This document shows positions 983 to 27,036 of a DNA stretch of 64,000 nucleotides, in pieces. Under the pieces are notes generated by a model. The model did not search any database and was not told where the DNA came from. It was given only the letters and a program-made list of their open reading frames with translations. The stretch's first letter is position 1. The number at the start of each line of letters is the position of its first letter. A program made the position numbers and the translations under genes. This stretch comes from an uncultured Chryseobacterium sp. (GTDB lineage Bacteria > Bacteroidota > Bacteroidia > Flavobacteriales_F > PHOS-HE28), in contig CAZYPC010000003.1 of assembly GCA_964649165.1 (NCBI GenBank), positions 11,430 to 75,429 on the forward strand, read 5' to 3'.

Positions 983-1792
983 GTGGAAGACCCTCGCGAA
1001 AAGAGGTCGGGGACCCTTGACCGGGCCTATTTTGGCCCTCGTTCCCGCGCCTTGAACCTCCTGTTCCATACCGGCCATTACTTCCAGTTGCTGGGGGAGG
1101 TTTTTTCCAAACCCGAGCGGTTCAGCTTGTACTGGAAGCGCACGGTGGAGGAGATCGACCTGCTGGGCGTCAAGAGCTTGGGTATCGTGGCGCTGCTCTC
1201 GGTCTTCATGGGGGCGGTCATCACCATCCAGACCAAGACCAACATCGATTCGGCCTGGATACCCCAGTACGTGGTCGGGTTCACCGCCCGGCAAAGCACC
1301 ATCCTGGAGTTCAGCCCCACCATCATCAGCCTGATCCTGGCCGGGAAGGTGGGCAGCAACATCGCGGCGGAGATCGGCTCCATGCGCGTGAAGGAGCAGA
1401 TCGATGCCTTGGACATCATGGGCGTGAACAGCGCGGGCTACCTCATCCTGCCGAAGGTGGCCGCCGCCATCATCATCAACCCCTTCCTGGTCATCATCAG
1501 CATGTTCCTCAGCATTTTCGGGGGTTGGCTGGTGGGGACCGGAACGGGCATCATCAGCACGAGCGCCTATGTCCAAGGCATCCAGTGGGACTTCGACCCC
1601 TACATCATCCAGTACGCGCTGATCAAGACGGTGGTCTTCGCCATCATCATCACCACGATCAGCGCTTACCAGGGCTACTACACGAAGGGTGGCACCCGCG
1701 AAGTGGGCATCAGCAGCACCCGTGCCGTGGTGTACAGCGATGTGGTGATCCTGATCATGAACTACCTGCTCACCCAGCTCCTGCTCATATGA
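983..1792 (+). CDS. mlaE: ABC transporter permease, MlaE family (phospholipid/toluene-tolerance type)
   Basis: About 270 aa polytopic membrane protein with the conserved MlaE core (ILEFSPTIISLILAGKVGSNIAAEIGSMRVKEQIDAL). GTG start. Its stop overlaps the start of the next ATPase gene. Confidence 0.8.
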   Translation: MEDPREKRSGTLDRAYFGPRSRALNLLFHTGHYFQLLGEVFSKPERFSLYWKRTVEEIDLLGVKSLGIVALLSVFMGAVITIQTKTNIDSAWIPQYVVGFTARQSTILEFSPTIISLILAGKVGSNIAAEIGSMRVKEQIDALDIMGVNSAGYLILPKVAAAIIINPFLVIISMFLSIFGGWLVGTGTGIISTSAYVQGIQWDFDPYIIQYALIKTVVFAIIITTISAYQGYYTKGGTREVGISSTRAVVYSDVVILIMNYLLTQLLLI

Positions 1793-2550
1793 TCGAGGTG
1801 CAACACCTCAGCAAGCGCTTCGGGAACAACCAGGTGCTGTCCGACATCAGCGCCGTGTTCGAGAAGGGGCGTGTGAACCAGATCATCGGCAAGAGCGGAA
1901 GCGGGAAGAGCGTGCTGTGCAAGTGCATCGTCGGGCTTTTCGTACCGGAGGAAGGGGAGGTGCTTTACGATGGCCGCTCCTTCCACCACCTGGACAAGGA
2001 GCAGAAACGCGAGGTGCGGCAGGAGATCGGCATGCTGTTCCAGAGCAGCGCACTGTTCGACTCGCTCACCGTGCTCGAGAACGTGCTCTTCCCCCTGCGC
2101 ATGTTCGCCACGATGGAGGAGAGCGAAATGGAGGACCGAGCGCAACTCTGCCTGAAGCGCGTGAAGATCGAGGGAAAGGACAAGCTCTATCCCAGCGAGA
2201 TCAGCGGGGGCATGCAGAAGCGCGTGGGCATCGCAAGGGCCATCGCCATGAACCCCAAGTACCTGTTCGTGGACGAGCCCAACAGCGGCCTCGATCCGCA
2301 GACGAGCATCGTGATCGACAACCTGATCAACGAACTGACGGAGGAATACGACATGACCACGATCATGATCACGCACGACATGAACAGCGTGATGGAGGCC
2401 GGGGACAACATCCTGTTCATCCACGAAGGGAAGGCCTGGTGGAAGGGCACGCGCCAGGAGATGTTGGAGAGCGACAACCGCGAGCTGAACGACTTCATTT
2501 TCGCCAGTGGCCTCATGCGCAAGGTGAAGGAGGCCGCGAAGAGGGGGTGA
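1789..2550 (+). CDS. mlaF: ABC transporter ATP-binding protein, MlaF family
   Basis: Internal ATG (MIEVQHLSKRFG...) of track ORF 1525..2550. Walker A GKSGSGKS, signature SGGMQKRV, Walker B LFVDEP. ATGA overlap with mlaE. Confidence 0.85.
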   Translation: MIEVQHLSKRFGNNQVLSDISAVFEKGRVNQIIGKSGSGKSVLCKCIVGLFVPEEGEVLYDGRSFHHLDKEQKREVRQEIGMLFQSSALFDSLTVLENVLFPLRMFATMEESEMEDRAQLCLKRVKIEGKDKLYPSEISGGMQKRVGIARAIAMNPKYLFVDEPNSGLDPQTSIVIDNLINELTEEYDMTTIMITHDMNSVMEAGDNILFIHEGKAWWKGTRQEMLESDNRELNDFIFASGLMRKVKEAAKRG

Positions 2551-2679
2551 GGCCGGAGGCCGGTTGACGGTTATCTGTTGTTGGTTGTCAGGCTGCCGAT
2601 GGCGCGCCTTGAAGATCGGTCAATCGACCGCTATCGCGCGCTTGTTCCGTTCCGACGGACAACCACCAACCGACAACAG

Positions 2680-2720
2680 AAACCCCGGCATCCGGAGTCC
2701 GCTCCGGGTGCCGGGGTTTC
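2680..2720. terminator. GC-rich hairpin between convergent mlaF and T9SS cargo gene (bidirectional terminator candidate)
   Basis: AAACCCCGGCATCCGGAG-tcc-gCTCCGGGTGCCGGGGTTT perfect about 18-bp stem, followed by TTCTTCGGGG. Confidence 0.6.
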
Positions 2721-2733
2721 TTCGGGGCTGACG

Positions 2734-4566
2734 TCAGAACCGCTGCACCTTGCCGGTGTGGCGAACGCCGTTGATGATCACGCTATAGTGGTAGACCCCG
2801 GCGGTGAGCGCCGCGCCATCGAGGCGATAGCGCTGCTGTCCGGCGGTGAGCTTTCCGAGGCTCTTCGCCACCACCTGACGTCCCAATGCATCATGCAGTT
2901 CGATGCGCACATCGGCGGTGCGGGCCAGCTCGAAGCGCAGGTCGCAGGCGTTGTCGAAGGGGTTCGGTCCCGCCTGTACCACCGATACCAGACCGTCCGT
3001 TTCGGCGATGCCGATGGGACCGCTGGCCAGCACCGCACGCACCATCGGCGTCTTGGTGATGGTGAACTCCATGTTCGCCGCCAGGTTGGGGTAGTGGATC
3101 AGCGCGATCTGCAGGGGTACGAAACCGCTGGTCGCGAAACGGATGCTGTCCGAGGCCTGGAACGTGCCAGCCATCACCTGCACCACGTCGCCTGAGAACA
3201 CGTCGATCGGGTTGGTGAAGTTCATGGTGAAGAACGAAGTACCACCGATGTCGTTGAGGTCGGCTGCTTCGATCGTGTGCTCCACGCTGAAATCACCACG
3301 CAGGGAAGGGTGGGATGCATTGTCCGCCGCCAGGTCATACACCGCGCCATAGACGAGACCGCCTACCGGTGTCGCATTGTGAACGGCGGCCTGCACGGCG
3401 ATGATCTGGTCGTCCACTTGGAACTGGAACTTCGACCCCACCTCATAGTTCTCGGCGAGGTTGTCCGGAGCCTGACGCTGGAACCCGGTCACCGCGCCAT
3501 TGTCCAAGGCATATACGCTTCCGGAGACGGCGAATTCCCGCACCTCCGTGTTGTTCTCAGGAACTTCGTCCGCCTCGTTCTGTGTGAGGGAGAAAGTCAC
3601 CTCGTAGTTCCCGATCTCGCCATTGGGCTGGAACAGGTCGAAGAGCTGCTCGTACTCGTTGCCGGGATCAACGTCCACAGCGTCCGCAGACCAGGTGAAG
3701 TCGTCACCGTTCGGACCAACGATGGCCATCGTGGCTACAACACCGGTCTGCTGCATATAACCCTTGTTCTTCACCTTGGCCTTCGCTTCCAGCGCAACGA
3801 GGTGCGCCTGTGGGTAAATGGTGTAAGGCTGGAAGTCCGGTCCGGTGTTGGCGAAATCGAAGGAGGTGGTGAAGGCGCTGAGCAGGGCCATGTCGTTCTC
3901 CGGCAGCTCATCGATGGCGATGTTGTCCACCTGCCAGCCATAATCCCAGGTGGCGGCGTAGCGGAAACGGATGCGCACGTTGGCCGGGTTGGCAGCTACA
4001 AGGTCGCTGATGTTCACATCGACCGCCTCCGGATTCGGGCGGCCGTCGCGGCCCACACCATCGTTGATCAGGATATCGTCCCAGTTGGCGCCGTCGTCGG
4101 TGGAAACACCCACCCACACATCCACCAGGTCCTCGTCGAACACTTGGTAGTACTGATCGAAGGTGAGGCGCAGGTTCGCCGGAGCGCTGGACAGGTCGAT
4201 CACGGGGCTCACCAACGAGCTCTCGTTGAAGAGGCCGGATTCGCCCTCGAAGTCGTCGTCGAAAATGGCCCAGCCCGTGGTCGTATTCATCACGGGCACG
4301 GGGTATTGGCTGGAGGTCGGGCCGGGACCGGTGTTGGTCCAATGCCACACCACGGAGCCCTCATCGTTCGTCACCGTCCATCCGTTCAGGTCATTGTCGA
4401 AATTCTCCGTGAAGAATGCGCTGCCCTTGGGCATGCCTCGCTCGCCTTTGACGCATGGTTGATGATATCCGTGTTTGGCCTCCGGATGCAGCGGGAATTC
4501 AACGCGGTTCTGCGCCGTCGCGCAAAGGGCCATCATGCACAATGGCCAGGTGTAAAGTCGTTCCAT
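2734..4566 (-). CDS. secreted MAM-like (choice-of-anchor-J-like) domain protein with T9SS C-terminal sorting domain, paralog A
   Basis: Signal peptide MERLYTWPLCMMALCATAQ (internal start of ORF 2734..4626). ENFDNDLNGWTV...WHWT MAM-like N-domain. C-terminal about 80 aa ends ...GVYHYSVIINGVRHTGKVQRF, typical of a Por/T9SS CTD. Confidence 0.7.
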   Translation of the reverse strand: MERLYTWPLCMMALCATAQNRVEFPLHPEAKHGYHQPCVKGERGMPKGSAFFTENFDNDLNGWTVTNDEGSVVWHWTNTGPGPTSSQYPVPVMNTTTGWAIFDDDFEGESGLFNESSLVSPVIDLSSAPANLRLTFDQYYQVFDEDLVDVWVGVSTDDGANWDDILINDGVGRDGRPNPEAVDVNISDLVAANPANVRIRFRYAATWDYGWQVDNIAIDELPENDMALLSAFTTSFDFANTGPDFQPYTIYPQAHLVALEAKAKVKNKGYMQQTGVVATMAIVGPNGDDFTWSADAVDVDPGNEYEQLFDLFQPNGEIGNYEVTFSLTQNEADEVPENNTEVREFAVSGSVYALDNGAVTGFQRQAPDNLAENYEVGSKFQFQVDDQIIAVQAAVHNATPVGGLVYGAVYDLAADNASHPSLRGDFSVEHTIEAADLNDIGGTSFFTMNFTNPIDVFSGDVVQVMAGTFQASDSIRFATSGFVPLQIALIHYPNLAANMEFTITKTPMVRAVLASGPIGIAETDGLVSVVQAGPNPFDNACDLRFELARTADVRIELHDALGRQVVAKSLGKLTAGQQRYRLDGAALTAGVYHYSVIINGVRHTGKVQRF

Positions 4567-4679
4567 CAGAACAAGGGGTTTCCGGCGAAGATATCGCACA
4601 CTGCTGTACGCCTCCGAACGTTCCACCCCGTGGTTGATGGACGGTTGTGGATAGGTTGTGACGCGACCGCATCAGGCCC

Positions 4680-4735
4680 AAAAAAAAGCGAAGCCCCCCG
4701 GAACCCCGGAGTTTCATCCAGGGCCGGGGGGCTTC
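4680..4735 (-). terminator. Rho-independent terminator of paralog B (minus strand)
   Basis: GAAGCCCCCCGG...CCGGGGGGCTTC 12-bp stem immediately 3' of the gene, followed on the minus strand by a T8 tract (A8 on plus at 4681-4688). Confidence 0.7.
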
Positions 4736-4756
4736 GTCTATCAGGTCCGTCGATCC

Positions 4757-6673
4757 TTAGTGGATCACGGTCATGCGCTTGGTCAAACGGGTGCCGTCGG
4801 CGGTGAGCGAGTAGAAGTACACGCCCTCGTTCAGGCTCGTGGTATCGAACTGCAGGCGATGGCTACCCGCGCCGCGCTTGCCCACGGCCTGTGTGGCCAC
4901 GAGCTTGCCGCTCATGTCATGCACCTCCAGGTTCAGGTTGGCGGCCTCCTTCAGGTCGAAGGGGATCACCGTGATGCCCGTGGCCGGGTTCGGGATGTTC
5001 TGGCCCAGGCCGATGCCGTTCTGGCGGTCGCCTTCTTCGATGCCCACGCTCGGGTTGAAGTTCATGCGCACCAGCGGCATGTCATTCGTGTAGAACCATA
5101 CCAGACCCGCGTCCGGTTCATCCGTGGGGGGATCATAGTAGATGAAGGTCGTTTGGTCTTCGGACACCCCATTGATGGCCGTCCGCACCTCTGCGCCGCC
5201 GAAGTGCTTGATACAAACGAAGTAATCCAGTCCAGCTTCCAGGAACTGGGGTTCGCTGAAGATCAACGAGATCACCTTGGTGCCATTGGTCCCATTCAGT
5301 TCGCTACTGGCGATGGTGTGGTCCATCGTTTCGGAGAGCTCGACCTCCACGTCGCTTCCGTCCTTCAGCAGGCCCACGATCGGAACCCCAACAGGGCTGG
5401 GGCTGCCACCGTTACGGATGGCCACGTCAACGGCGTACAGTTCCACATCGTTCGCGATATGGAAACCGTTGCACAACTCGTATTCGCCGCTGCCGATGTC
5501 CTCATAGGAAGCCGCCGTTCCTCCGTCACGTGAGTAGATGAACTCCTTCACCTTGAAGGAACTCTCTGCAGTGTTGTTGTCGTCCGTGGTGTCCCCCACG
5601 GTTGAAGTTGCCGTGTACGTGACATCATAGGTGCCTTCCGTGGCCGGCGGGATGAAGTCGGGTGAAACGTACACCGTCTGTTGGCAGGCGTCCACATCCA
5701 CGGTCTGGTTCTGGTCCAGCACCGTGTTGGCGCCTTCCATGACCTTGAAGTTCAAGACTGTGCCGGTCTGAGCCAGAGAGCCGTTGCTCCTCACCGTCAT
5801 GCTGAGCGGAACCGGGCGCAGTTGGCTGAAGGGATACACCGTGTAGTTCAACGAATCGTAGGAGATGGCCGTGTTCAGGTCCCAGTAGGACTGTGAGGCG
5901 CTCTCCAGCACCAGGTCATGTTGTGCCGGCTCGATCAATTTCACATCATCGATCTGCCAGTGGTAGTGGGAGGATCCCGAGTTGGTACCGTCGTGCATGA
6001 ACCGGAATTGCACCTGGCTGGCGTTCCCTGAAAGGATATCGCAGGAAATGTTCGCGGTCGCCGTCACTGTCCCGGTCCCCGCATTGATCGGGGTGCTGGG
6101 AAGGACATGGACGCCCGAGGACCACAAGCTGCCCCCGTTCGTGCTCACTTGCACATACCAAGGCACTTCACCGCAGCACCAGCGTCCCGCCATCTCGAAC
6201 TCGACGACCACGTTGGGCGTCGCGCTCAGGTCGAGTACGGGGGAAACCAGTCCGGCATCCCAGTTGACAGGCGAAGAGACGATGGTCGTATCGCTCCAGT
6301 CCGTGTTGGCTGAATCCGTGGCCAGCAGCATCCAGCCATTATCGGCGGTGGTCGAGTTGATCACCTCGCCGGGGTCGGTGTACGCGCCGTTCGGGGCGCT
6401 GTGCGTGTAGTGCCAGAGGCTGCCGTCGGCTTCGTTCGTGGTCCATGCGCCAAAACCGTTGTTACCTGCCATGCCGTTGGCGAAGTCCTCGCTGAAGACG
6501 ACATCACCGGGCGCGCGGTCTTGTGCCTCCGCCGTACCAGCGCCAGTAAGGGATGTTGCGTGGGTCAGGCCATGAGGACGGGCCCACTGAGGCAGTTGCG
6601 GTTTGTTCACACGCTGCGCTTGCGCGGCCCCGGCCGTGCAGGCCAGCAGGAGCAGAAGGTACTTGTGGTTCAT
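4757..6673 (-). CDS. secreted MAM-like domain protein with T9SS CTD, paralog B
   Basis: Signal peptide MNHKYLLLLLACTAGAAQAQ (internal start of ORF 4757..6712). EDFANGMAGNNGFGAWTT...WHYT N-domain. C-terminal ...GVYFYSLTADGTRLTKRMTVIH. Confidence 0.7.
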   Translation of the reverse strand: MNHKYLLLLLACTAGAAQAQRVNKPQLPQWARPHGLTHATSLTGAGTAEAQDRAPGDVVFSEDFANGMAGNNGFGAWTTNEADGSLWHYTHSAPNGAYTDPGEVINSTTADNGWMLLATDSANTDWSDTTIVSSPVNWDAGLVSPVLDLSATPNVVVEFEMAGRWCCGEVPWYVQVSTNGGSLWSSGVHVLPSTPINAGTGTVTATANISCDILSGNASQVQFRFMHDGTNSGSSHYHWQIDDVKLIEPAQHDLVLESASQSYWDLNTAISYDSLNYTVYPFSQLRPVPLSMTVRSNGSLAQTGTVLNFKVMEGANTVLDQNQTVDVDACQQTVYVSPDFIPPATEGTYDVTYTATSTVGDTTDDNNTAESSFKVKEFIYSRDGGTAASYEDIGSGEYELCNGFHIANDVELYAVDVAIRNGGSPSPVGVPIVGLLKDGSDVEVELSETMDHTIASSELNGTNGTKVISLIFSEPQFLEAGLDYFVCIKHFGGAEVRTAINGVSEDQTTFIYYDPPTDEPDAGLVWFYTNDMPLVRMNFNPSVGIEEGDRQNGIGLGQNIPNPATGITVIPFDLKEAANLNLEVHDMSGKLVATQAVGKRGAGSHRLQFDTTSLNEGVYFYSLTADGTRLTKRMTVIH

Positions 6674-6884
6674 ATAGGTCAGGTCTTTCGTTTTTTCTGA
6701 AGGAGCGGCCAATTTAACCGGTTGGCGGCTGAGTCCGATCGTTGTTCGGGATCTTCCTCACGGTCCATCACCGGCCATCTTTCAGACGCCACGGAGGGCA
6801 TTCGCCGTTGCAGGACCGCAGGCCATGGACCCATTGGGTCTATACAGGTCCAACCGGTCCTGTGTGATCTTCCGGCTGGGGAAG

Positions 6885-6929
6885 TTGCGAAAAGATGAAC
6901 GCCCCCCGGGGAACCGGGAGGCGTTCATC
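6885..6929 (-). terminator. Rho-independent terminator of paralog C (minus strand)
   Basis: GAACGCCCCCCGG-ggaa-CCGGGAGGCGTTC hairpin 3' of gene 6946.., followed on the minus strand by a TCTTTTCG tract. Confidence 0.6.
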
Positions 6930-6945
6930 AGATGTGATGTCGGTA

Positions 6946-8820
6946 TCAGTTGAGCGAAATGCGCTGCACGGTGGCCTTCTCCTTGTTCGAGATACGCACC
7001 GAGTACACGCCCTTCGCCAGGTCGCTCAGGTCGACCGTGCTCGTGCCGTTCAAACGCCGGGTCGAAACCGTTTCGCCCAGGGCGTTGATCAGCTCCACGG
7101 TGTAGGTGCCTTGAACGGTGAAGTTCAAGTTCACCAGGCCGCTGGTGGGGTTGGGGAACAGGTTCACCCCCGTCAGTTCCTCGCGCTCTTCCATGCCGAT
7201 GTTGGGGTCGGATAGGAGGCGGATGACGAACGCGTTCCCGTTGCCGGCCGTTCCCGGCTCATCTCCCGCTTGTGTCGGCTCTGGCAGGTAGATGTAACTG
7301 CCCGGTTGTGGTACAGTGAAGTCGTCGTTGATGCGGATATCGAAGGTATTGCCTGCGCTGAACAGCTTCACCCCTGCGAAGTATCCGGTAGCGGGATCCA
7401 GGTCGTAGGACTCGGTGAAGGGCAGGATCACGAAGCCTGCATCGATGTCGGCCTGCGTAAGCGTGTATTCCGCGCTGCTGACGAGCGGCGCGGTGGGGTC
7501 ATCGGCGAACACATCCGTGGTGTCGTGCAGGGTAGCCTGGATGGAACCGCCCGGTACGGATTGGTCATTGATCCCGACATAGGCCCCGTAGGCCGTCCAC
7601 GTTTCCCGAGCGAAGTAGTTCGTGAAGCAGAACATGCCGTCCGGGTTGTTCGCGAACGAAGCCGTACCGAGGGATGAAAGGATGTTCTCGGGGTAGACAC
7701 CCAGACCATCGAGGGAGTACTCATCCTCGGTCACTTGGAACACGCGCACGATCGTATCGTTGGCGGGATCGCCATCGCTGGCCTGATCGTTCGTGGTGAT
7801 CCACATCGTGGTGGTGTAAGTGCCCACCGGCCAGTCGCCGATGGTCACATTCTCATCCGCGTTGTAGGATTCGCCCGAAGCCAGGTCCACTGCTGAAGTG
7901 GAATAGTCCAGTACCACCGCATTGGATTGATCCTTGGTCTGTACATGCAACACGACGTTGGTCTGCGGGTTGATGCCGAAATTGGCCAGTTCACCGCCCA
8001 GGTTGAGGTTGGTGCCGAGCTGACCCAGCGGAACGCGTGCGTATTCGTTGCCATCGCCGGTGTGGCTGATGAAGTTGCTCGCCAAGCCCACGTCATAAGG
8101 CAGCTGCTCGAAGATGTTCACGTCATCCACGTACCAGGTATAGCCCCAGATCCCGTAGAACAGGAAGCGCACATACACTGTGGACTGGCCACCGGCCGCC
8201 TCACTGATGTTGACCCGCTTGATCGTAGGGTTGGGTACAGGTACGCCGCTGGACAGTTCACCGGGATACCACACCGGGTAAATGCCCACCGGCAGGTCTA
8301 CGGTAGCGGTGTCGCTCGGGACCTGGGGCCAGTTGTTAGGATCGGTGGTGATCACCACATACGTCTGCTCATTGGAGTAGCGGCGGTACATGGTCTGGAA
8401 TTCCAGGATGACGTTCGGGTAGGCGCTCAGATCGATGGGGGCCACCGTCGAGAGCTCGGCCTTCTCGTAATCCGTCCCGTCCTGGTTGGCACCCAGATCG
8501 GAATCGTACATCGCGTAACCATCGTCAGACGTGCTGCTGGCGATCGCGGTAGTCGGGAAGCCGCCGGTGGACTCGAGGCCCACGCCCACTTCCCAATCCC
8601 AATCGAAGGCGTCGGCCGGGTGGGTGGCCACCCAATCCGCAGGAACGGCGAAGGTGTTGGACCAGATCACAGCCCGGTCCTCAGAGGCCGGGGTCGCGGT
8701 CGAGTGCCCGGTCCGCTGAAGGACGGGTTCGGCCATGCGGGCCTGACGGACGTGCGACTGCGCCAGAGCGGCGGAACCGATCGTCGCCAAAGCCAGGAAT
8801 GAAGCGTAACGCTTGTTCAT
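6946..8820 (-). CDS. secreted protein with T9SS CTD, paralog C (divergent N-terminus)
   Basis: Signal peptide MNKRYASFLALATIGSAALAQ (internal start of ORF 6946..8841). Central region alignable with the neighbouring paralogs. C-terminal ...GVYSVRISNKEKATVQRISLN CTD. Confidence 0.65.
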   Translation of the reverse strand: MNKRYASFLALATIGSAALAQSHVRQARMAEPVLQRTGHSTATPASEDRAVIWSNTFAVPADWVATHPADAFDWDWEVGVGLESTGGFPTTAIASSTSDDGYAMYDSDLGANQDGTDYEKAELSTVAPIDLSAYPNVILEFQTMYRRYSNEQTYVVITTDPNNWPQVPSDTATVDLPVGIYPVWYPGELSSGVPVPNPTIKRVNISEAAGGQSTVYVRFLFYGIWGYTWYVDDVNIFEQLPYDVGLASNFISHTGDGNEYARVPLGQLGTNLNLGGELANFGINPQTNVVLHVQTKDQSNAVVLDYSTSAVDLASGESYNADENVTIGDWPVGTYTTTMWITTNDQASDGDPANDTIVRVFQVTEDEYSLDGLGVYPENILSSLGTASFANNPDGMFCFTNYFARETWTAYGAYVGINDQSVPGGSIQATLHDTTDVFADDPTAPLVSSAEYTLTQADIDAGFVILPFTESYDLDPATGYFAGVKLFSAGNTFDIRINDDFTVPQPGSYIYLPEPTQAGDEPGTAGNGNAFVIRLLSDPNIGMEEREELTGVNLFPNPTSGLVNLNFTVQGTYTVELINALGETVSTRRLNGTSTVDLSDLAKGVYSVRISNKEKATVQRISLN

Positions 8821-8977
8821 GGGTCGTTGGGGTTGTTGCAATAAGGGGTTGAGGGGCGAAAGTAGTTACGAGCCGTTGTCCATGGGATAAATGGAGTGCC
8901 AGGTCCTCGTCACGGAATGCGCGTTCCGTTTCCAACGTTCGCACGAAGCGGTCATTCGACACGTGGCCTAGGGAGGG

Positions 8978-10750
8978 TCAGTGCCCCACAACCAAACGGG
9001 CAGTGCGCGCGGTGTCAGGACCTGAGATGCGGATCAGGTACACCCCGCTAGGCCACGCGCTGATATCCAGCCGGGTGGTTCGGACACCTGTCGGCAGTCC
9101 GGTCGTCATCATACGCAGGCCCCTGCTGTCGTAAACGACCAGCGTCGAGGGTCCTTCGAGGAGTCTGCCGAAGCGGATCGTTGCACTCTCTGTCGCCGGG
9201 TTCGGGGACAGGACCAGTTCCTTGGCATATCCAGATTGGTCGCTCGAAAGGCCCGTCACCGGCTCGCTGAGGTGCAATCGAACGATCGGAGCAACGGTGG
9301 GATAGGAGATCAGGAAGCTCTGCGCGTCAATGACGAACGCAGCGCCTTCGGGAACGGAACCGCCGGAAGCCACCCGCAACACTCCGCTATCCGGCAGGCA
9401 GCGAACGAGCGCCAGCACGTCCTCTCCTGTAACGGCATAGGCGCTGTCCAAGGGGATGTAAACGGACCCTCCCGCAAAACTGAGCCCCAGGTCCTCATCG
9501 CTCACGGTGTGCGCGGCCGATGAGGACAGCAGGTTCAATGTGCCGTCCATCAATAGCGCGTGGACCCGGGAGCCGGGAGCCGTGCCTGCCCCGAACCGTA
9601 CGCTGATGCCGCGGACCACGCTCCCATCCCCGGTCAGCTCATAACGGCAGCCAGCCGAAAAACCGCTATCCGTGCCACAAACGGTGCTCGCCAGGTCGTT
9701 GTCCAAGGCCATGGCATTATTCCCCTCACCGGCAGACGTGACCCGGTAGCCCAACCCGGCGGAATTGTCCGAGGGTTCCTCATCCGCATTCAAGGCCTCG
9801 ACGGTCAGGGTCATCGTGATCAGACCCGGTTCGTCCACCATGAAGCCGGTAGTCCAACTGACCAAGGTGTCCTGTAGTGGTGCGAGCGTCTCCAACACGT
9901 TGGTGGTGATCGTCGTGGGGGGATCCACGCCCAAAGAGATGTCAGCATGTACCCGCACCGTTGAGGCCGTGGACGTGCCGTTGTTGCGGATGCGTGCTGA
10001 TAGCTGAAGCGGGGTCTGCTGCTCGAAGGGCATGCGTGTATAGCCGAGGGACCGCACGCTGGTGTTGAAGGAACTGGCCGTCGTGTTACCGAGCCAGGCC
10101 CCGGACAATGCGATGTCGTTCGGAACGCGGGCGAACACGCACACATCATCGATCGCGATACCCGATGCCCATTCATTGTTGTCGTCGTACCGGAAGCGCA
10201 GTTGCACCTGGCCGCCGGCGAAAGCCCCCAGATCCGCTGTGCGCTGCTGCCACGCGCCAAGCAACGCCGGGATCTCCTCGATCCAGGTCCAGGAGCTGCC
10301 GTCCGGGCTTGCCCACAGGGAAGCTTGACCGTTGAACGGCCGACCATCGTGATAGACCCGATAGGTGACGGCCGGGTCCGTTGCTGCGGTGAGGTCGAAG
10401 AAGGGAGAGAACAGCGAGAGGTCGTTCATGGCGCAATCGCATGGCGCCGCGTCGTCGTTGGCCATGGCGAACGTGTTGCCGACGGGCTCATCCGGCACGG
10501 GGAAATACCCCGCGGCGTTGGCTTGGCTCGCGTCACCGACCTGCCAGGGAGCGACGAACGCACCGGTGCCGTTCCCATCGACGTCCAACCGTTCTACTTC
10601 GGCCGGTAGCCCGACCCAACCGGATGGCAGACCGCCGGCGGGAAAGCTCTCGCTGTACAGACACAGCGCCCGTGATTGCGCCCGGCATTGCCACATGGCC
10701 ATCATCAGAAGGATGCTGAAGGTCAGTCGGCCCATAACAGGTGTGCGCAT
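8978..10750 (-). CDS. secreted MAM-like domain protein with T9SS CTD, paralog D
   Basis: Signal peptide MRTPVMGRLTFSILLMMAMWQCRAQ is internal to ORF 8978..10936, and the 62 codons upstream of it contain the terminator of paralog E. C-terminal ...GVYLIRISGPDTARTARLVVGH. Confidence 0.65.
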   Translation of the reverse strand: MRTPVMGRLTFSILLMMAMWQCRAQSRALCLYSESFPAGGLPSGWVGLPAEVERLDVDGNGTGAFVAPWQVGDASQANAAGYFPVPDEPVGNTFAMANDDAAPCDCAMNDLSLFSPFFDLTAATDPAVTYRVYHDGRPFNGQASLWASPDGSSWTWIEEIPALLGAWQQRTADLGAFAGGQVQLRFRYDDNNEWASGIAIDDVCVFARVPNDIALSGAWLGNTTASSFNTSVRSLGYTRMPFEQQTPLQLSARIRNNGTSTASTVRVHADISLGVDPPTTITTNVLETLAPLQDTLVSWTTGFMVDEPGLITMTLTVEALNADEEPSDNSAGLGYRVTSAGEGNNAMALDNDLASTVCGTDSGFSAGCRYELTGDGSVVRGISVRFGAGTAPGSRVHALLMDGTLNLLSSSAAHTVSDEDLGLSFAGGSVYIPLDSAYAVTGEDVLALVRCLPDSGVLRVASGGSVPEGAAFVIDAQSFLISYPTVAPIVRLHLSEPVTGLSSDQSGYAKELVLSPNPATESATIRFGRLLEGPSTLVVYDSRGLRMMTTGLPTGVRTTRLDISAWPSGVYLIRISGPDTARTARLVVGH

Positions 10751-10882
10751 GGATCTGTTCCCGTCCTCGAACGTAGGTGGCGCACTGATCCGTACCGGCG
10801 CGTTGACGTTCTGGAGCGAAGGGCCGCGAAAGTAGCCCAAGTCAGTACGTGGCCCCGTGCTTGAAGCGGACGCCAGGAAATG

Positions 10883-10908
10883 AAAAGGTCCCCTCGCGGA
10901 GACCTTTT
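10883..10908 (-). terminator. hairpin terminator of paralog E
   Basis: AAAAGGTC-ccctcgcgga-GACCTTTT hairpin with T-rich flanks, 25 nt downstream of the stop of gene 10933..12759. Confidence 0.5.
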
Positions 10909-10932
10909 CTGTCACGGTCGATCGTGGGCCCG

Positions 10933-12759
10933 TCACCGTCGCGCTTGGTGGACGAGTTTCACCGTTGACCGCACACCACTTGATCCAACCATCACCGTGT
11001 AGACCCCTGCTCCAAGATCCTCACCATCCACGGTGAAGCGTTGTTCTCCGGCAGGCAGGTGGCCGAGGTTCCCGTTCCGCACCAGACGACCCGCCGCATC
11101 GCGCATTTCCCAGCGAACCGCTCCTGCGCGTTCGTTCGTGAAGCTGACTGTCGCCTCGCTCTCGAATGGCGATGGCCATGCGCGCAGTCCCGCCCTCACG
11201 GGCTCCAATACTTCCACGCCTACATCGTTGGCGAGCCTCATGCGCACCATGGGTGTGGCGGTCGTGTAGTACCATGATCCGGAATCGAGCGGACGGACAA
11301 AGGAGAGTTGTGGCTCGCTGGTACCGCTCGTCCCGGTGAAGACGTTCCCGTAGTCGGTCTGCACGTAAACACAGGCCAGGTACATCCTTTCGTTATCCAG
11401 CGTTGTTGGTATGAGCAGGGGCAGGTGAATGAAGTGTGTACCTCCGTACGCGTTGATGTCCGACTCCGAAATGGTGTAGAGGTCGCTGCTGCCCACGTAG
11501 CTGTTCAGTCCTTCGTAGACCATCGCTGTGATCAAGGCGCCAGGTTCTGTTCCCGGGCCCACGGCCACATCCACGCCTTCCAAGGTGCGATCATATCCCT
11601 GCACCCAGAAGCGGTTGCCCAATTCATATCCCTCCCCACCGTTGTCGCGCGAATTATCGACCTGGCCTTCGTCGCGGGCAAAGGCCTCCTGGTCGATGCG
11701 GATGGTGAACTCCTTCACGTTGTCGCCCGGTTCGGCATCTTCCTGGTCCTGCAGGATGGTGAACACATAGTGATAGTCCCCCACCACGTCCGGCGGCTCG
11801 ATGCCTGCAAGCACTAGCGTATCCTGCGCTGTCGGGGCCAACGAGATGGCTGGACTGATGTGGGTGGTGGTAAAGCCATCAGGGCCGGTCACCTCCGCGC
11901 GGAGGCGCACATTGGTCTGTACCAGGCTACCGTTGTTCGCGATCACGGCCTGATAGCTCAACGGGCGTACTTCGCCTTGTGGGTAGCTCGTACAGGGTGT
12001 TCCATAGTATCCTGTGCCCGGAGCGTGTTCTTCACCGATGAGATCCACCATCGTCAGGTTGTCCTGTGGGACCGGCAGGAGCGAGACCTCATCCACCTGC
12101 CAGCTGTAGGTGTATCCTTCATCGCTGATCCATTCGAAACGGATGCGGATGTCGTCGGAGATGGGCGTCAGCGCCGAACTGATGTTCAGTAACACCGTTT
12201 GCGCGCTTGGGGCACCCGGCGTCATCTGGTTACCGGGCAGGTCCTGGTTCACCGGGTAGGTCATCCAGTGATCCCCGCCATCACCGCTCACGTGCACGAG
12301 CGTCTGATCATCGTTCAGTTGGCGGAAGCTCTGTTCGAACCGCAGCAACATATAGTGCGTGCTTCCGAAGCCCAGCAGTGGGGGCGATGTGATCGTTGTG
12401 TTCTCCGGTGATCCGGCTGTGCCGTGGGCGTCACTGTCGGCCTGGATCCAATGACCTCCCGGATAGCCGGAGGTGCCTTGGAGCGGTCCCGGAGTGTAGC
12501 CTTCATCATTGCCGGTGCTGGTGAGTTCCCAAGGAACATTCCCGACCGGTGTCTCTACCGTCCAGCCGTTCAGTCCGTTCTCGAAATTCTCCGTCATCAG
12601 CGTCAGTGCATCGGACCGGTCGCCCGCCCTGCCCGCAGGTCGGTCACCGGAGACGAGTGCCGGAGTCTTGTGGTTCAGGACAGGTGCTTGAGCTGTCCCC
12701 TGTTGTGCGGCGAGCCATAAAGGCATCGACAGCAGCGCGATGGTAGATGTGCTTCGCAT
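10933..12759 (-). CDS. secreted MAM-like domain protein with T9SS CTD, paralog E
   Basis: Signal peptide MRSTSTIALLSMPLWLAAQ. TENFENGLNGWTVETPVGNVPWELT MAM-like motif. C-terminal ...GVYTVMVGSSGVRSTVKLVHQARR CTD. Confidence 0.7.
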   Translation of the reverse strand: MRSTSTIALLSMPLWLAAQQGTAQAPVLNHKTPALVSGDRPAGRAGDRSDALTLMTENFENGLNGWTVETPVGNVPWELTSTGNDEGYTPGPLQGTSGYPGGHWIQADSDAHGTAGSPENTTITSPPLLGFGSTHYMLLRFEQSFRQLNDDQTLVHVSGDGGDHWMTYPVNQDLPGNQMTPGAPSAQTVLLNISSALTPISDDIRIRFEWISDEGYTYSWQVDEVSLLPVPQDNLTMVDLIGEEHAPGTGYYGTPCTSYPQGEVRPLSYQAVIANNGSLVQTNVRLRAEVTGPDGFTTTHISPAISLAPTAQDTLVLAGIEPPDVVGDYHYVFTILQDQEDAEPGDNVKEFTIRIDQEAFARDEGQVDNSRDNGGEGYELGNRFWVQGYDRTLEGVDVAVGPGTEPGALITAMVYEGLNSYVGSSDLYTISESDINAYGGTHFIHLPLLIPTTLDNERMYLACVYVQTDYGNVFTGTSGTSEPQLSFVRPLDSGSWYYTTATPMVRMRLANDVGVEVLEPVRAGLRAWPSPFESEATVSFTNERAGAVRWEMRDAAGRLVRNGNLGHLPAGEQRFTVDGEDLGAGVYTVMVGSSGVRSTVKLVHQARR

Positions 12760-12976
12760 GTGCGCGATGGAATTTGTTCGTTCCGGTGATCGGCCAGGGG
12801 TGGACCGGTCTTGTCGGAAGCGAACGTACCCGCGCTGGAAGCCCTGCTGTTAGTGGAATGTGACCGTTCGGGATGACGCGCGCGAATGGTTCGCGTGGAC
12901 ACATCAAGGACAAAGCTGGGGCCTTGAACTGTGAAGGAACGTGAAAGGTGAGGAGCGGTTGTACCAGTGGTCAGTT

Positions 12977-13018
12977 GGCAGTGGCGGTGAGCGGTGCGCG
13001 CTGCTCACCGCCACTGCC
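12977..13018. terminator. perfect 16-bp stem hairpin 3' of gcvP
   Basis: GGCAGTGGCGGTGAGC-loop-GCTCACCGCCACTGCC, followed by a CACTGCCACTGCCAACTGG direct repeat. No obvious U-tract. Confidence 0.4.
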
Positions 13019-13033
13019 ACTGCCAACTGGAGT

Positions 13034-15898
13034 TCACGCCTCCTGTGTCTCGTACTCCTCGATCGGCGGGCAGGTGCAGATCAGGTTGCGATCGCCGAAC
13101 GCGTTGTCCACACGGCTCACGGTGGGCCAGTACTTCCACTCACGGTTCACGTGCGCGGGGAAAGCCGCCTGCTCGCGCGTGTATGCGTGGTTCCATTCGT
13201 TGCCGCAGACCTCCTCGCTCGTGTGCGGTGCGTTCTTCAGCACGTTGTCCGCCTTGTCGGCCTGGCCTTTCTCCAAGGCGGCCACTTCCTTCCGGATGCC
13301 CACCATCGCCTCGATGAAGCGATCGAGCTCGGCTTTGCTCTCGCTCTCCGTCGGCTCCACCATCAGCGTTTCCGCAACAGGGAAGCTAACCGTTGGCGCG
13401 TGGAAACCGTAATCCATCAAGCGCTTCGCGATGTCGCTCACGTCCACCCCAGCAGCGCGTTTGAAGTCGCGGCAATCAAGGATCATTTCGTGTGCCACCA
13501 TGCCTTCGCTGCCGACGTAGAGGATGGGGTAGTGCTTCTCCAGTTTCGCACGGAGGTAGTTCGCGTTCAGGATCGCGTAGCGTGTGGAGTCGGTCAGTCC
13601 ATCACCACCGAGCATCTTGATGTAGCCGTAGCTGATCAGCAGGATCAGCGAGCTTCCCCATGGGGCCGCACTCACCGCAGGCACGGCTTTCTCGCCGCCG
13701 GTCCTGATCACGGGGTGGCCGGGCAGGAAGGGCTTCAGCTTGTCGTTCACACAGATCGGACCCATGCCGGGGCCGCCGCCGCCGTGCGGGATCGCGAAGG
13801 TCTTGTGCAGGTTCAGGTGGCACACGTCGGCGCCGATGTCGCCCGGACTGGTCAGGCCCACCTGTGCGTTCATGTTCGCGCCGTCCATGTACACCAGGCC
13901 ACCGTTCGCGTGAATGGTGCTGGTGATCTCCTTTATCGTCTCCTCGTACACGCCGTGCGTGCTCGGGTAGGTCACCATCAGGCAGCTCAGCGTGTCCTTG
14001 TATTGTTCGGCCTTCGCCTTGAGGTCCGCAACGTCCACGTGGCCTTCCTCATCGGCTTTCACCACCACGATGTTCATGCCCACCATGGCGGCGCTCGCAG
14101 GGTTGGTGCCGTGTGCGCTGCTCGGGATGAGCGCGACATTGCGCTTGCCATCGCCCCGCGCTTCGTGATAGGCACGGATCACCAGCAGCCCGGCGTATTC
14201 GCCCTGCGCGCCGCTGTTCGGTTGCAGGCTCACCGCGGTGAAGCCCGTGCACTTCGCGAGCGCATCGCTCAACTGGCGGAAGACCTCCTGGTAGCCCTCG
14301 GTCTGATCGACCGGCGCGAAGGGGTGGATGCCCGCCCATTCCGGCCAGGTCAATGGCAACAGTGTGCTGGCTGCGTTCAACTTCATCGTGCATGAGCCCA
14401 GTGGGATCATGCCGTGCATCAGGGAGAAATCCTTGTTCTCGAGCCGCTTGATGTAGCGCTGTAGTTCGAGTTCGGTGTGGTGTGTATTGAACACCGGATG
14501 CGTGAGGATGGCACTCTTGCGTTGCAGGTCCGCAGGGACGGCCAACGTGCTGCCATTGCCGCTCATCGCCGGGGCCTTTGCGCCGATCGCCTCGGCCAAG
14601 GTGGCCACCACGTCGTTCGCATCGCTTGCGCGCACGGTCTCGTCGAAGGCGATGCTCACGTTGCTTCCGTCGTAACGGAAATTGATGCTGCGCTTCTCCG
14701 CAGCGGCCTTCACCGCTTTCACATCCTTCACGCCGCTCAGCGTAATGGTGTCGAAGAAGCCCGCGTTCGCCACGGTGTACCCGATCGCTTTCGCTGCTTC
14801 GGCCACGTTGCGCGTGTGCGCATGCACGTTGCGCGCGATGCGTTCCAACCCTTCAGGTCCATGGTACACGGCGTACATGCCGGCCATCACGGCGAGCAGT
14901 GCTTGTGCCGTACAGATGTTGCTCGTGGCCTTGTCGCGGCGGATGTGCTGCTCGCGCGTTTGCAGCGCCATGCGCAGGCCCTGCTTGCCTCGACGGTCCT
15001 GGCTCACACCGATGATGCGGCCCGGGATCAGGCGCTTGAACTCGTCCGTCGTGCAGAAGAACGCGGCGTGCGGACCGCCATAGCCCATCGGCACGCCGAA
15101 GCGCTGACTATTGCCGACGCAGACATCCGCGCCCCACTCACCGGGGGGGGTGAGCAGAACGAGAGCGAGCAGGTCGGCACACACCGCCGTGCGAACACCC
15201 GCGGCTTTCGCCTTGCTGACCAACGCGCGATAGTCGTTCACGCTGCCGTCGATCGCCGGGTATTGCAGCGCGAGGCCGAAATAGCCATCGGTCGGATTGA
15301 AGTCCTTCACATCACCCACGACGAGTTTTACGCCGATCGGCGTGCAGCGCGTGCGGAGCACGTCGATGTTCTGAGGGAAGAGGCCTTTGTCGGCGAAGAA
15401 CTTGTGTGCGTTGGTGAGTTCCTTCGGACGCGCGGCATAGAGCATGTGCATCGCCTCGGCGATGGCCGTAGCCTCGTCGAGCAGAGATGCGTTCGCGATG
15501 GGCAGACCGGTAAGCTCGCTGCACATCGTCTGGAAGTTCAGCAATGCTTCGAGCCGGCCCTGAGAGATCTCCGCCTGATATGGCGTGTAGGCCGTGTACC
15601 AACCCGGGTTCTCGAACACGTTCCGTTGGATGGGCGGTGGAAGTATGGTGCCGCTGTAGCCCAGGCCGATGTAGCTGCGGAAGACCTTGTTCTTCGCGCC
15701 GAGCGCACGCATGTTGTCCAGGTGCTGACGCTCGGTCATCGCCGGCCCTACATCGAGCGCGTTCGCACGGCGGATGCCTTTGGGTACGGTGCGATCGATC
15801 AGTTCATCGAGGCTGCCCACGCCAACGGCTTTCAGCATGGCGCTCGTCTCAGCGTCGTTCGGTCCGATGTGGCGCTCGCGGTAGGTGACGGAGTTCAT
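13034..15898 (-). CDS. gcvP: glycine dehydrogenase (decarboxylating), glycine cleavage system P protein
   Basis: 954 aa. N-terminal MNSVTYRERHIGPNDAE... Two aminotransferase-like halves and a PLP-lysine region. Full-length collinear with single-chain GcvP. Confidence 0.95.
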   Translation of the reverse strand: MNSVTYRERHIGPNDAETSAMLKAVGVGSLDELIDRTVPKGIRRANALDVGPAMTERQHLDNMRALGAKNKVFRSYIGLGYSGTILPPPIQRNVFENPGWYTAYTPYQAEISQGRLEALLNFQTMCSELTGLPIANASLLDEATAIAEAMHMLYAARPKELTNAHKFFADKGLFPQNIDVLRTRCTPIGVKLVVGDVKDFNPTDGYFGLALQYPAIDGSVNDYRALVSKAKAAGVRTAVCADLLALVLLTPPGEWGADVCVGNSQRFGVPMGYGGPHAAFFCTTDEFKRLIPGRIIGVSQDRRGKQGLRMALQTREQHIRRDKATSNICTAQALLAVMAGMYAVYHGPEGLERIARNVHAHTRNVAEAAKAIGYTVANAGFFDTITLSGVKDVKAVKAAAEKRSINFRYDGSNVSIAFDETVRASDANDVVATLAEAIGAKAPAMSGNGSTLAVPADLQRKSAILTHPVFNTHHTELELQRYIKRLENKDFSLMHGMIPLGSCTMKLNAASTLLPLTWPEWAGIHPFAPVDQTEGYQEVFRQLSDALAKCTGFTAVSLQPNSGAQGEYAGLLVIRAYHEARGDGKRNVALIPSSAHGTNPASAAMVGMNIVVVKADEEGHVDVADLKAKAEQYKDTLSCLMVTYPSTHGVYEETIKEITSTIHANGGLVYMDGANMNAQVGLTSPGDIGADVCHLNLHKTFAIPHGGGGPGMGPICVNDKLKPFLPGHPVIRTGGEKAVPAVSAAPWGSSLILLISYGYIKMLGGDGLTDSTRYAILNANYLRAKLEKHYPILYVGSEGMVAHEMILDCRDFKRAAGVDVSDIAKRLMDYGFHAPTVSFPVAETLMVEPTESESKAELDRFIEAMVGIRKEVAALEKGQADKADNVLKNAPHTSEEVCGNEWNHAYTREQAAFPAHVNREWKYWPTVSRVDNAFGDRNLICTCPPIEEYETQEA

Positions 15899-15964: not shown

Positions 15965-16591
15965 ATGCGCCCGAGCCTCCTGCTCCTGTTCCTGCTCCTG
16001 CTGCTGCCGGCTTGGGCACAGGACCGGATCAACCTGATGAACGGACAGGTCCTGGAGGGCAGGGTCCTTGGCCAAAGCACCCTGGAGATCCGCTACCAGG
16101 TGAAAAAGAAGGACCGGCTCATCGAACGCAGCGAACCGACGGAGGGGGTCTTCAGTGTGACCGATAGTCTGGGAAAAGAGAAGGTGTGGTACTTCATGGA
16201 CACCGTCTTCGGCAACGACCTGTCGATCCCACAGATGAGGCGGTACCTGGTGGGTGAACGCGATGCGCGCAATGGCTACAAGCCCTGGGGACCGATGATC
16301 GGTGGCTTCCTCGTCGGTGCGGGCACGGTGATCGCCATGGACCTAGAAGTGAATTCGCTCATCATACCGCCGGCCTACGCGGGCCTGATGGCCTGGCCAC
16401 GTGTGAACGTTACGCGTGGCTCGATCAGTGATCCGGGCATGGAAGGCGATCCGTACTACGCGATGGGTTATTCCGCCGCCGGCCGTCCGAAGCGGGTGAT
16501 CAAGAGCTTGATCGCATCGGCGCTTGGCGTGGGTGTGGGGCTCTTCGTCCGGCAGGTCATCATCAATCCGAACCAGCCATCCGGTTACTGA
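15965..16591 (+). CDS. hypothetical exported protein
   Basis: ATG start. Leu-rich signal peptide MRPSLLLLFLLLLLPAWAQ. Genome-typical codon usage. Divergent from gcvP. Confidence 0.5.
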   Translation: MRPSLLLLFLLLLLPAWAQDRINLMNGQVLEGRVLGQSTLEIRYQVKKKDRLIERSEPTEGVFSVTDSLGKEKVWYFMDTVFGNDLSIPQMRRYLVGERDARNGYKPWGPMIGGFLVGAGTVIAMDLEVNSLIIPPAYAGLMAWPRVNVTRGSISDPGMEGDPYYAMGYSAAGRPKRVIKSLIASALGVGVGLFVRQVIINPNQPSGY

Positions 16592-23951: not shown

Positions 23952-24015
23952 GCCGCATGTCGCTGTCAGCCCAAGTGGGGACCATAAATGAGAGGCGGCC
24001 GACTTCCTTTGGGCC

Positions 24016-24543
24016 GTGGACACCGCCGCGACGTTCAGAGCGCTGTACGATGCGCACGCCCGCATGGTCTACAACCTCTGCCTGAACCATCTGCGCAACG
24101 CGGATGAAGCGGCCGAAGCCACACAGGATGTCTTCGTGAAGGTCCACGAAAAGCTGTCGGGTTTCAAGGGCGATGCGACCCTGCGCACCTGGATCTACAG
24201 GATCACGATCAATACGTGTCTGGACCGGTTGAAGGCGCGCAAGCGGAAGAAACGCGCGTTGTTCGGCTGGTTGAGCCTTTCGGATGAACATGTCGAACGC
24301 GCCGCATCCGCCGTGTTCGATCACCCTGGCGTTGCCGCTGAGGATCGAGAGGCCCTCGAACGCTTGTTCGTGATGGTCGATGACCTGCCCGGACAGCAGC
24401 GGACCGCCTTGCTGCTGAAGACCTCCGAGGACCTGTCGATGGTCGCCATCGCCGAGGTGATGGGTATTTCATCGAAGGCGGTGGAATCGCTTTTGTCCCG
24501 CGCCCGTGCCAACCTGCGTCAACGCCTGCCCAACGAAGGATGA
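24016..24543 (+). CDS. RNA polymerase sigma-70 factor, ECF subfamily
   Basis: Region 2 (VKVHEKLSGFKG...WIYRITIN) and region 4 (LPGQQRTALLLKTSEDLSMVAIAEVMGIS) motifs. 175 aa. Confidence 0.85.
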   Translation: MDTAATFRALYDAHARMVYNLCLNHLRNADEAAEATQDVFVKVHEKLSGFKGDATLRTWIYRITINTCLDRLKARKRKKRALFGWLSLSDEHVERAASAVFDHPGVAAEDREALERLFVMVDDLPGQQRTALLLKTSEDLSMVAIAEVMGISSKAVESLLSRARANLRQRLPNEG

Positions 24544-24574
24544 ACACGTATCTGTCGTCAAACACCGCAAGAAC

Positions 24575-24847
24575 ATGGACACGAACGCCCCGGAAGACCT
24601 GCTGAAGCGCGTAGCGCGCGTCGATCCGCCACCGTTCCTGTTCACGCGCATAGAAGCCCGCCTGGCGAGCGGGGCATTGATGCGGGTGCCGCGCGCTCGA
24701 CTGGTCGCCGTGGCTTGTGGGCTGGCACTGCTGCTGCTGGCGAACGTGAGCGTGATCATGCGGGCGTCACGCGCTGCGGCCGGCCCATCTTTGTGCGACG
24801 TGGCCGAAGGAATGGGCATGAACGTGACCAACCAGCTCTACCAATGA
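24575..24847 (+). CDS. putative anti-sigma factor (single-pass membrane protein)
   Basis: Immediately downstream of the ECF sigma gene. About 90 aa with one TM helix LVAVACGLALLLLANVSVIM. Internal ATG of ORF 24506..24847. Confidence 0.45.
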   Translation: MDTNAPEDLLKRVARVDPPPFLFTRIEARLASGALMRVPRARLVAVACGLALLLLANVSVIMRASRAAAGPSLCDVAEGMGMNVTNQLYQ

Positions 24848-26988: not shown

Positions 26989-27036
26989 GCGAAGGATGCG
27001 TGCGCGGACGTCGTCCAACGGTCACACCCCACCGAG

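Follow-up and report, generated by a model that had tools for sequence, protein, structure and literature searches.

Some of the proteins that Bacteroidota export through a type IX secretion system (T9SS) carry a choice-of-anchor J domain, and in Prevotella intermedia such cargo has been described as putative adhesins (PMC11969387). The stretch of DNA analysed here, 64,000 nucleotides from contig CAZYPC010000003.1 of an uncultured Chryseobacterium sp. and hereafter called the window, encodes a tandem array of five paralogous proteins of this general kind. Their genes lie consecutively on the minus strand: G1 at 2734..4566 (610 aa), G2 at 4757..6673 (638 aa), G3 at 6946..8820 (624 aa), G4 at 8978..10750 (590 aa) and G5 at 10933..12759 (608 aa). 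Like the choice-of-anchor J cargo, these proteins have a signal peptide, a choice-of-anchor-J-type jelly roll, beta-sandwich spacers, a C-terminal sorting domain (CTD; TIGR04183 / PF18962) and no recognisable catalytic domain, and they occur in Bacteroidota that carry sortase genes of the T9SS. Unlike that cargo, they score under the cut-off of the choice-of-anchor J model NF038128, their middle domains are not FN3, and the family to which they belong is uniform in architecture, at about 610 aa, and sits at a conserved place in the chromosome, adjoining gcvP. The explanation toward which we lean, with moderate confidence, is that the five are old paralogs that serve as non-catalytic surface or secreted binders, each with a distinct and individually conserved specificity.

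Several better-known domains resemble the N-terminal domain of these proteins. The cleaved-adhesin domains K1-K3 of Porphyromonas gingivalis Kgp/HagA share its jelly-roll fold and its context in a T9SS-secreted Bacteroidota surface protein; the window domain, however, is single and N-terminal rather than part of a C-terminal repeat array, lies outside any protease polyprotein, and has no Pfam match to cleaved-adhesin (PF07675) in any of the five proteins. MAM domains (4gwm, 8a28 and 8zi4, and the InhA-like PF20773) share the fold, with query-normalised TM-scores (TMq) of 0.59-0.65 and root-mean-square deviations of 3.9-4.9 Å, and also the motif skeleton E-x-F ... W ... SP ... R-F ... W-x-[IV]-D-[DN]-[IV]. 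The window N-domains nonetheless lack the conserved MAM cysteines and carry an Asp-box-like STDGGxTW hairpin, as reelin subrepeat B does; none of the five matches MAM PF00629, and PF20773 is matched in G4 alone, at 15.9 bits against a gathering threshold of 26.9. Beta-sandwich carbohydrate-binding modules (CBMs), namely CBM61 (2xom), CBM22, CBM11 and CBM16, are likewise similar in fold, and aromatic and acidic side chains are abundant among the residues that do not vary in the G1 orthologs. The window N-domain, by contrast, belongs to none of these CBM families by sequence and is attached to no glycoside hydrolase, and any carbohydrate binding would be putative.

No Pfam or NCBIfam model covers the full length of the family. 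A HMMER scan of 1.84 billion representatives (clusters at 50% identity) yields at least 2,014 family representatives at E<=1e-30, nearly all of 590-650 aa and matched end to end. We found no dedicated literature on the family; choice-of-anchor J is mentioned as an annotation label only, and none of the literature found joins the T9SS with a MAM domain. Tandem arrays of paralogous T9SS cargo are commonplace in Bacteroidota; what is distinctive here is the age of the paralogs, their fixed order and the conserved site adjoining gcvP.

Orthogroups, copy number and constraint

An earlier note on this DNA, made by a model from the sequence alone, had placed five consecutive minus-strand genes here and had called the identity among their products low to moderate, and both statements hold: the list of open reading frames (ORFs) contains the five genes, and all-against-all BLASTP finds all five proteins homologous over nearly their full length at 21-29% identity (E 1e-8 to 1e-62). 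Because the alignments span nearly the whole proteins, these are true full-length paralogs with more in common than a sorting tag, and their shared structure is not confined to the CTD. The lengths of 600-650 aa given in that note fit four of the five; G4 falls below the range. There is no sixth family member anywhere else in the window.

A survey of one genome per GTDB species, which returned 79 loci, shows how stable the arrangement is. Nearly all of these loci come from metagenome-assembled genomes (MAGs) labelled Flavobacteriales, many from activated sludge and lakes, with some Crocinitomicaceae or Parvicellaceae. G1 alone has more than 100 homologs, almost all of about 608 aa, and those with a source name come from "Flavobacteriales bacterium" MAGs. 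Across the surveyed loci family members always stand in tandem on one strand; in 38 loci their direct upstream neighbour, on that strand too, is gcvP, and in 45 the convergent mlaF/mlaE pair lies downstream. The 26 arrays with both flanks contain 2 to 6 ORFs each (mode 4), and copy number at the locus ranges overall from 1 to 6 among relatives, so the array is far from being identical and single-copy throughout. The order G5-G4-(G3)-G2-G1 between gcvP and mlaFE recurs in about 30 uncultured Flavobacteriales species, G3 and G5 often being missing, and each window gene has orthologs in 17-30 other species with the order conserved.

A neighbor-joining tree of 194 members assigns each of the window's five genes to a clade of its own, of 17-42 sequences, with mean identity of 33-52% within clades vs 21-31% between them. 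Bootstrap values, taken from a reduced set of 74 taxa, are 100 for G1, 99 for G2, 99 for G3, 20 for G4 and 100 for G5. Since each of the five genes has its own orthologs and the gene order is conserved, the duplicates are old in the window's lineage. Distant lineages, whose gcvP is 58-63% identical, usually carry one or two copies directly after gcvP, which suggests a single ancestral gene at the gcvP-adjacent site. Some other lineages have expansions of their own, which include sets of three G3-like genes, a G1 present in duplicate and pairs of recent origin. Two loci of the survey, L054 (5730-9819) and L070 (2-3623), hold recent lineage-specific tandem duplicates at Kimura distances of 0.27 and 0.55. 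Duplication at this site is recurrent, and the locus behaves across Flavobacteriales as a birth-and-death family.

All five genes are under purifying selection, with dN/dS (Nei-Gojobori, pairwise against the nearest complete arrays) of 0.06-0.28. Against L005 the values are 0.13 for G1, 0.28 for G2, 0.28 for G3, 0.22 for G4 and 0.20 for G5, vs 0.14 for gcvP and 0.11 for MlaF; against L004 they are 0.056 for G1 and 0.156 for G2. Constraint on G1 is thus about that of the housekeeping flanks, while the proteins of G2-G5 evolve two to three times faster, being 58-66% identical where gcvP, MlaF and MlaE are 83-91% identical. No part of the protein is better conserved within orthogroups than the N-domain (0.66 in G1, 0.63 in G5, 0.49 in G2 and 0.43 in G4, vs 0.25 between paralogs), which reads as the signature of a paralog-specific conserved function and not of immune- or phage-driven hypervariation.

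Domain architecture and export

The architecture proposed in the earlier note (signal peptide, MAM-like or choice-of-anchor-J-like jelly roll, beta-rich middle, type-A CTD) is what the models show. An AlphaFold2 (AF2) model of G1 built from 40 orthologs, with a mean predicted local distance difference test score (pLDDT) of 80.5, runs from the signal peptide through a disordered linker of about 25 residues to the jelly roll (~50-222), an immunoglobulin (Ig)-like sandwich (~225-350), a second beta-sandwich (~351-515) and the CTD (527-610). In the DNA, the G1 N-domain is at 3883-4431 and its CTD at 2737-2997. G2 and G3 have the same architecture (N-domains at 5906-6514 and 8083-8682, CTDs at 4763-5029 and 6949-7182); in G4 the N-domain is at 10106-10675 and the CTD at 8984-9238, and in G5 they are at 12049-12615 and 10945-11205, the G5 CTD being sub-threshold for its hidden Markov model. 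All five proteins are acidic. The enrichment in Thr, Asn, Gly and Val that had been remarked on is in the right direction and is modest, at a fraction of 0.31-0.35 vs a background of 0.25.

Whole-chain Foldseek against the Protein Data Bank (PDB) gave generic multi-beta-sandwich matches only (N-terminal modules of glycoside hydrolase family 2, GH2; reelin; macroglobulins) at TM-scores of about 0.2. This being uninformative, the N-domain was modelled on its own, with a pLDDT of 87 and a predicted TM-score of 0.86. Its PDB neighbours, at TM-scores of 0.55-0.65, are CBM61, MAM domains, the gingipain Kgp K1/K3 domains, reelin repeats, InhA2 and several CBMs, CBM22, CBM11 and CBM16 among them. The top match is CBM61 2xom (E 4e-7); Kgp K1 and K3 (4itc, 3m1h) match at TM 0.57-0.61 with 18-19% identity and E of about 1e-5, and the MAM-type matches 8a28 (LAST-MAM), 4gwm (meprin beta, TMq 0.65), 8zi4 (enteropeptidase), 8yt7 and 4yu5 have TMq of 0.44-0.65 at probability 1.00. 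Given these neighbours of the modelled domain, the label MAM-like or choice-of-anchor-J-like is correct at the level of fold. By sequence, the choice-of-anchor J model NF038128 gives G4 24.5 bits against a cut-off of 30 and has no match in the other four, and it is found in 10 of 40 G1 orthologs at E<=0.01 (best E 3.2e-8); the N-domain would thus seem to be a homologous but divergent relative of choice-of-anchor J. A profile of the N-domain searched against PDB sequences yielded nothing significant beyond Asp-box matches to sialidases.

When the five paralogs are compared together with 18 G1 orthologs, seven positions of the N-domain never vary, in a skeleton of E-x-F, W, D in a DDD stretch, S-P, W, R-F and W-x-V-D-[DN]. 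D103, D105, W211 and D214 count among the invariant residues. The Asp-box-like hairpin has the form VSTDGGxTW, and a loop GVGRDGRPNPE is invariant among G1 orthologs and missing from the other paralogs. The motif ENF-N-LNGWT, given earlier as common to the array, occurs literally in G1 and G5 only; the other three retain no more of it than E/N-x-F...W.

The two middle domains are less readily named. The Ig-like domain matches CARDB (PF07705) in 2 of 40 orthologs (E 7.8e-4), DUF11 in 2 of 40 and neither in the five window proteins, and may be called weakly CARDB/DUF11-like. The third domain is an all-beta sandwich of about 160 aa in which D355 and R510 alone are invariant among G1 orthologs. 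Internal duplication among the four domains was rejected, hhalign probabilities being at most 2.3%, and no catalytic or enzyme family was found by Pfam and NCBIfam in 45 proteins (the five of the window and 40 orthologs). A family relative of 2110 aa, P0116, carries the module formed by the Ig-like and third domains (profile positions 197-495) in seven tandem repeats; judging from this one protein, the middle module can be multiplied in the manner of an adhesin stalk.

The CTD is a type-A T9SS sorting domain (TIGR04183 / PF18962) and the sole domain that Pfam and NCBIfam recognise above cut-off. TIGR04183 scores, for an NCBIfam cut-off of 23 bits, are 27.5 for G1, 39.7 for G2, 45.4 for G3 and 31.5 for G4; G5, at 14.8 bits, has a CTD that aligns with the other four despite its score. 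The CTD model is matched in 40 of 40 G1 orthologs, and the full-length family profile searched against PDB sequences matched CTDs only, for example the solved T9SS CTD structures 8glj_D and 8qb1_A. By inspection, each of the five proteins begins with a Sec signal peptide whose N-terminus is basic, whose core is hydrophobic and whose end is at A|Q. The window also encodes, at 49068-54557 on the plus strand, a protein of 1829 aa with a Peptidase_C25 domain, which scores 554 bits with the PorU2-like model NF052324 (cut-off 450) and whose C-terminal part matches PorU; this gene indicates that the organism has T9SS attachment machinery. The genes sprA, gldKLMN and porV are not within the 64-kb window.

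Transcription units, gene models and neighbourhood

The earlier note treated each gene as a separate transcription unit and saw hairpin terminators after at least four of the five; RNA folding agrees for G1, G2, G3 and G5. On the minus strand, the hairpin after G1 is at 2670..2724 (inverted repeat I2; dG -45 kcal/mol, z -5.4), that after G2 at 4680..4739 (dG -45.1 kcal/mol, z -5.8; a GC-rich stem then T8, found also by a consensus scan), that after G3 at 6887..6929 (dG -32.7 kcal/mol, z -6.8) and that after G5 at about 10876-10909 (dG -27 kcal/mol, z -2.5). Folding finds no comparable hairpin after G4 (z -0.18), and transcription of G4 may continue into G3 by readthrough. The hairpin after G5 lies, as had been noticed, inside the reported 5' end of the next ORF, and this is an artefact of ORF extension: the mechanical ORF for G4 is 8978-10936, and the others are 2734-4626, 4757-6712, 6946-8841 and 10933-12759, all on the minus strand. 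The position of the signal peptides, the lengths of the orthologs and the transcription signals led us to move the starts of G1-G4 downstream of these calls. The G1 start (MERLYTW) is backed by 610-aa orthologs with 100% coverage. Among relatives whose array is full the closest is L083 (GCA_029562495.1), with G2 and G3 orthologs of 639 aa and 624 aa; the true start of G4 is the ATG at 10750 (MRTPVMG...), and its orthologs likewise begin MRTPV.

A scan for sigma-70 consensus promoters gave a count not above shuffled expectation and was uninformative, so a Bacteroidota -7-type motif, TAnnTT[TCG]G, was scanned instead. The window contains 22 copies on both strands, six of which fall within the five 200-nt upstream regions (1 kb in total). 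All on the minus strand, they are TATCTTCG at 4586..4593, 19 nt before the G1 ATG; TAAATTGG at 6709..6716, 35 nt before that of G2; TACTTTCG at 8857..8864, 36 nt before that of G3; TACTTTCG again at 10827..10834, 76 nt before that of G4, with a second motif copy at 10768-10775; and TACGTTCG at 12821..12828, 61 nt before that of G5. The spacing to the start codon is kept in the L083 and L086 orthologs, and in L086 the motif occurs five times in 12 kb, all five being these array promoters. Because the motif is enriched upstream of the genes and conserved in position in their orthologs, each gene is probably transcribed from its own promoter.

Upstream, gcvP (glycine dehydrogenase; 13034..15898, minus strand) has its stop codon directly followed by a near-perfect hairpin of about 70 nt at 12962-13032, probably the gcvP terminator and an unusually long one; with gcvP ending in a hairpin of its own, the array would not be co-transcribed with it. 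In the intergenic regions Rfam gave only chance matches on terminator hairpins (miRNA families on the gcvP hairpin), and there are no tRNAs. Downstream, the mlaE / mlaF-like ABC transporter pair (983..2550, plus strand) is convergent with G1. Beyond these conserved flanks lie a 208-aa secreted protein without family match at 15965-16591 on the plus strand, divergent from gcvP, and, on the far side of mlaE, a SprT-like protein at 84-713 on the minus strand. Most relatives keep both in synteny with the array, and the block is therefore a stable chromosomal neighbourhood, not an island. Farther away on the plus strand, a gene run at 23992-28857 opens with an extracytoplasmic function (ECF) sigma factor (23992-24543), goes on to an MbnP-like protein (25104-25973) and then a MauG-like di-haem cytochrome c peroxidase (25900-26988), closes with a YHYH protein (26989-28857), and looks like a copper-related cluster of the MbnP/MbnH type.

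Function and competing explanations

If the array is what we take it to be, its products would be exported by Sec, cleaved by signal peptidase at A|Q and then passed by the T9SS across the outer membrane by way of the CTD, which a PorU-type sortase would remove, leaving the protein surface-anchored or released. These steps of secretion and anchoring are what established knowledge of T9SS type-A cargo would predict. From the fold and its conservation we infer that the mature protein may bind a glycan or other polymer at the cell surface via the N-terminal jelly roll, as an adhesin would, and that the five N-domains may have diverged to different, individually conserved ligand specificities. This would be old subfunctionalisation within a birth-and-death family rather than ongoing antigenic variation, and the pattern fits it because the duplicates are old, selection is purifying and the N-domain is the most conserved part.

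The earlier note had spoken of an adhesin or antigen family undergoing diversification. One part of that description stands, namely that copy number varies from 1 to 6 among relatives; the age of the copies, their dN/dS and the conservation of the N-domain go against the rest. Its strongest version, an actively diversifying family of surface antigens or phage-receptor decoys in which variation itself is selected through ongoing duplication, recombination and positive selection, is in our judgement unlikely, even if it would account for the recent duplicates in L054 and L070 and for the faster evolution of G2-G5 than of their flanks. It would also account for the mosaic divergence of G2. Between close strains this gene has moved markedly further apart than the genes beside it, and against L083 it is the least conserved stretch, at 68-78% nucleotide identity. 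Compared with its counterpart in L004 (101-2104), G2 is a mosaic: the body is about 70% identical, with a proportion of synonymous differences (pS) of 0.7-0.8, while the last ~80 codons, the CTD, show 94% amino acid identity and pS of 0.14; in G1, beside it, pS is about 0.4. Given this mosaic divergence of body and CTD, allelic exchange of the G2 ectodomain is possible, with a recombination breakpoint near codon 500-550. A further point on that side is the G4 ortholog of L083 (3818-5593; 81% identical), in which a single in-frame stop (QQTPL*LSAR) takes the place of a Q of the window; the gene is a nonsense pseudogene, or else the consensus of the MAG is in error. Against active diversification, the window lineage has five old copies with one-to-one orthologs in conserved order, dN/dS is low throughout, and the exposed N-domain is what varies least within orthogroups. 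Nor is there a sign of the machinery: between copies no direct repeat exceeds 42 nt, the identity of those found being 74-87%, and tandem repeats of relevance are lacking. With no repeats found between copies, mechanisms based on a diversity-generating retroelement, on cassettes or on gene conversion were rejected; the earlier note's observation that no recombinase or reverse transcriptase accompanies the array holds among the scanned and annotated ORFs of the window.

The fixed order across about 30 species, the individual conservation of each orthogroup and the architecture and size common to all members could also be expected if the five paralogs were non-redundant obligate subunits of one heteromeric structure assembled through the T9SS, such as an S-layer-like coat, a lectin-bearing coat or a fibril. 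Tannerella TfsA and TfsB, a pair of T9SS-secreted S-layer proteins, supply the analogy. If real, such a structure would represent a new class of cell-surface architecture, widespread in Bacteroidota and comprising over 2,000 clusters at 50% identity. However, composition varies: G3 or G5 is missing from many species and distant lineages are single-copy, so that the stoichiometry of the subunits is not conserved. Nor do the genes form an operon, each having a promoter and a terminator to itself. We regard this proposal as improbable, more so than active diversification, and give as little credence to another, in which the proteins are secreted enzymes whose catalytic module is the third domain (~aa 350-520), absent from domain databases, and whose N-domain is a CBM. 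That proposal draws on the resemblance of the N-domain to CBM61, CBM22, CBM11 and CBM16, the usual companions of glycoside hydrolases, and on whole-chain Foldseek matches among which non-catalytic N-terminal modules of GH2 enzymes come first. It is opposed by the want of any Pfam or NCBIfam enzyme match in the 45 proteins, by a third domain that is an all-beta sandwich of about 160 aa with only two residues invariant among the G1 orthologs, and by conservation that is concentrated in the N-domain rather than there.

Our preference for old, individually conserved binders has to be set against several points, among them the divergence of G2 between close strains described above. The dN/dS values of 0.06-0.28 are whole-gene or 50-codon pairwise averages with dS near saturation, and they leave room for site-specific positive selection. 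The jelly roll is common to lectins, to protein-binding MAM domains and to accessory domains of enzymes, and the fold alone does not identify a ligand. By sequence, membership in choice-of-anchor J is sub-threshold in all five window proteins, the CTD of G5 is under the curated cut-offs, and the folds of the Ig-like and third domains were matched only generically.

A large share of the proteins that environmental Bacteroidota secrete or carry on their surface is T9SS cargo, most of it unannotated, and the hosts concerned here are Flavobacteriales of the kind that dominate activated-sludge and freshwater metagenomes. No new mechanism is indicated; the locus is a well-behaved case of the birth-and-death evolution of surface proteins. 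As such, the array offers, in five paralogs that are all old and each conserved in its own right, a clean natural series in which to study how the specificity of a lectin-like jelly roll is split.

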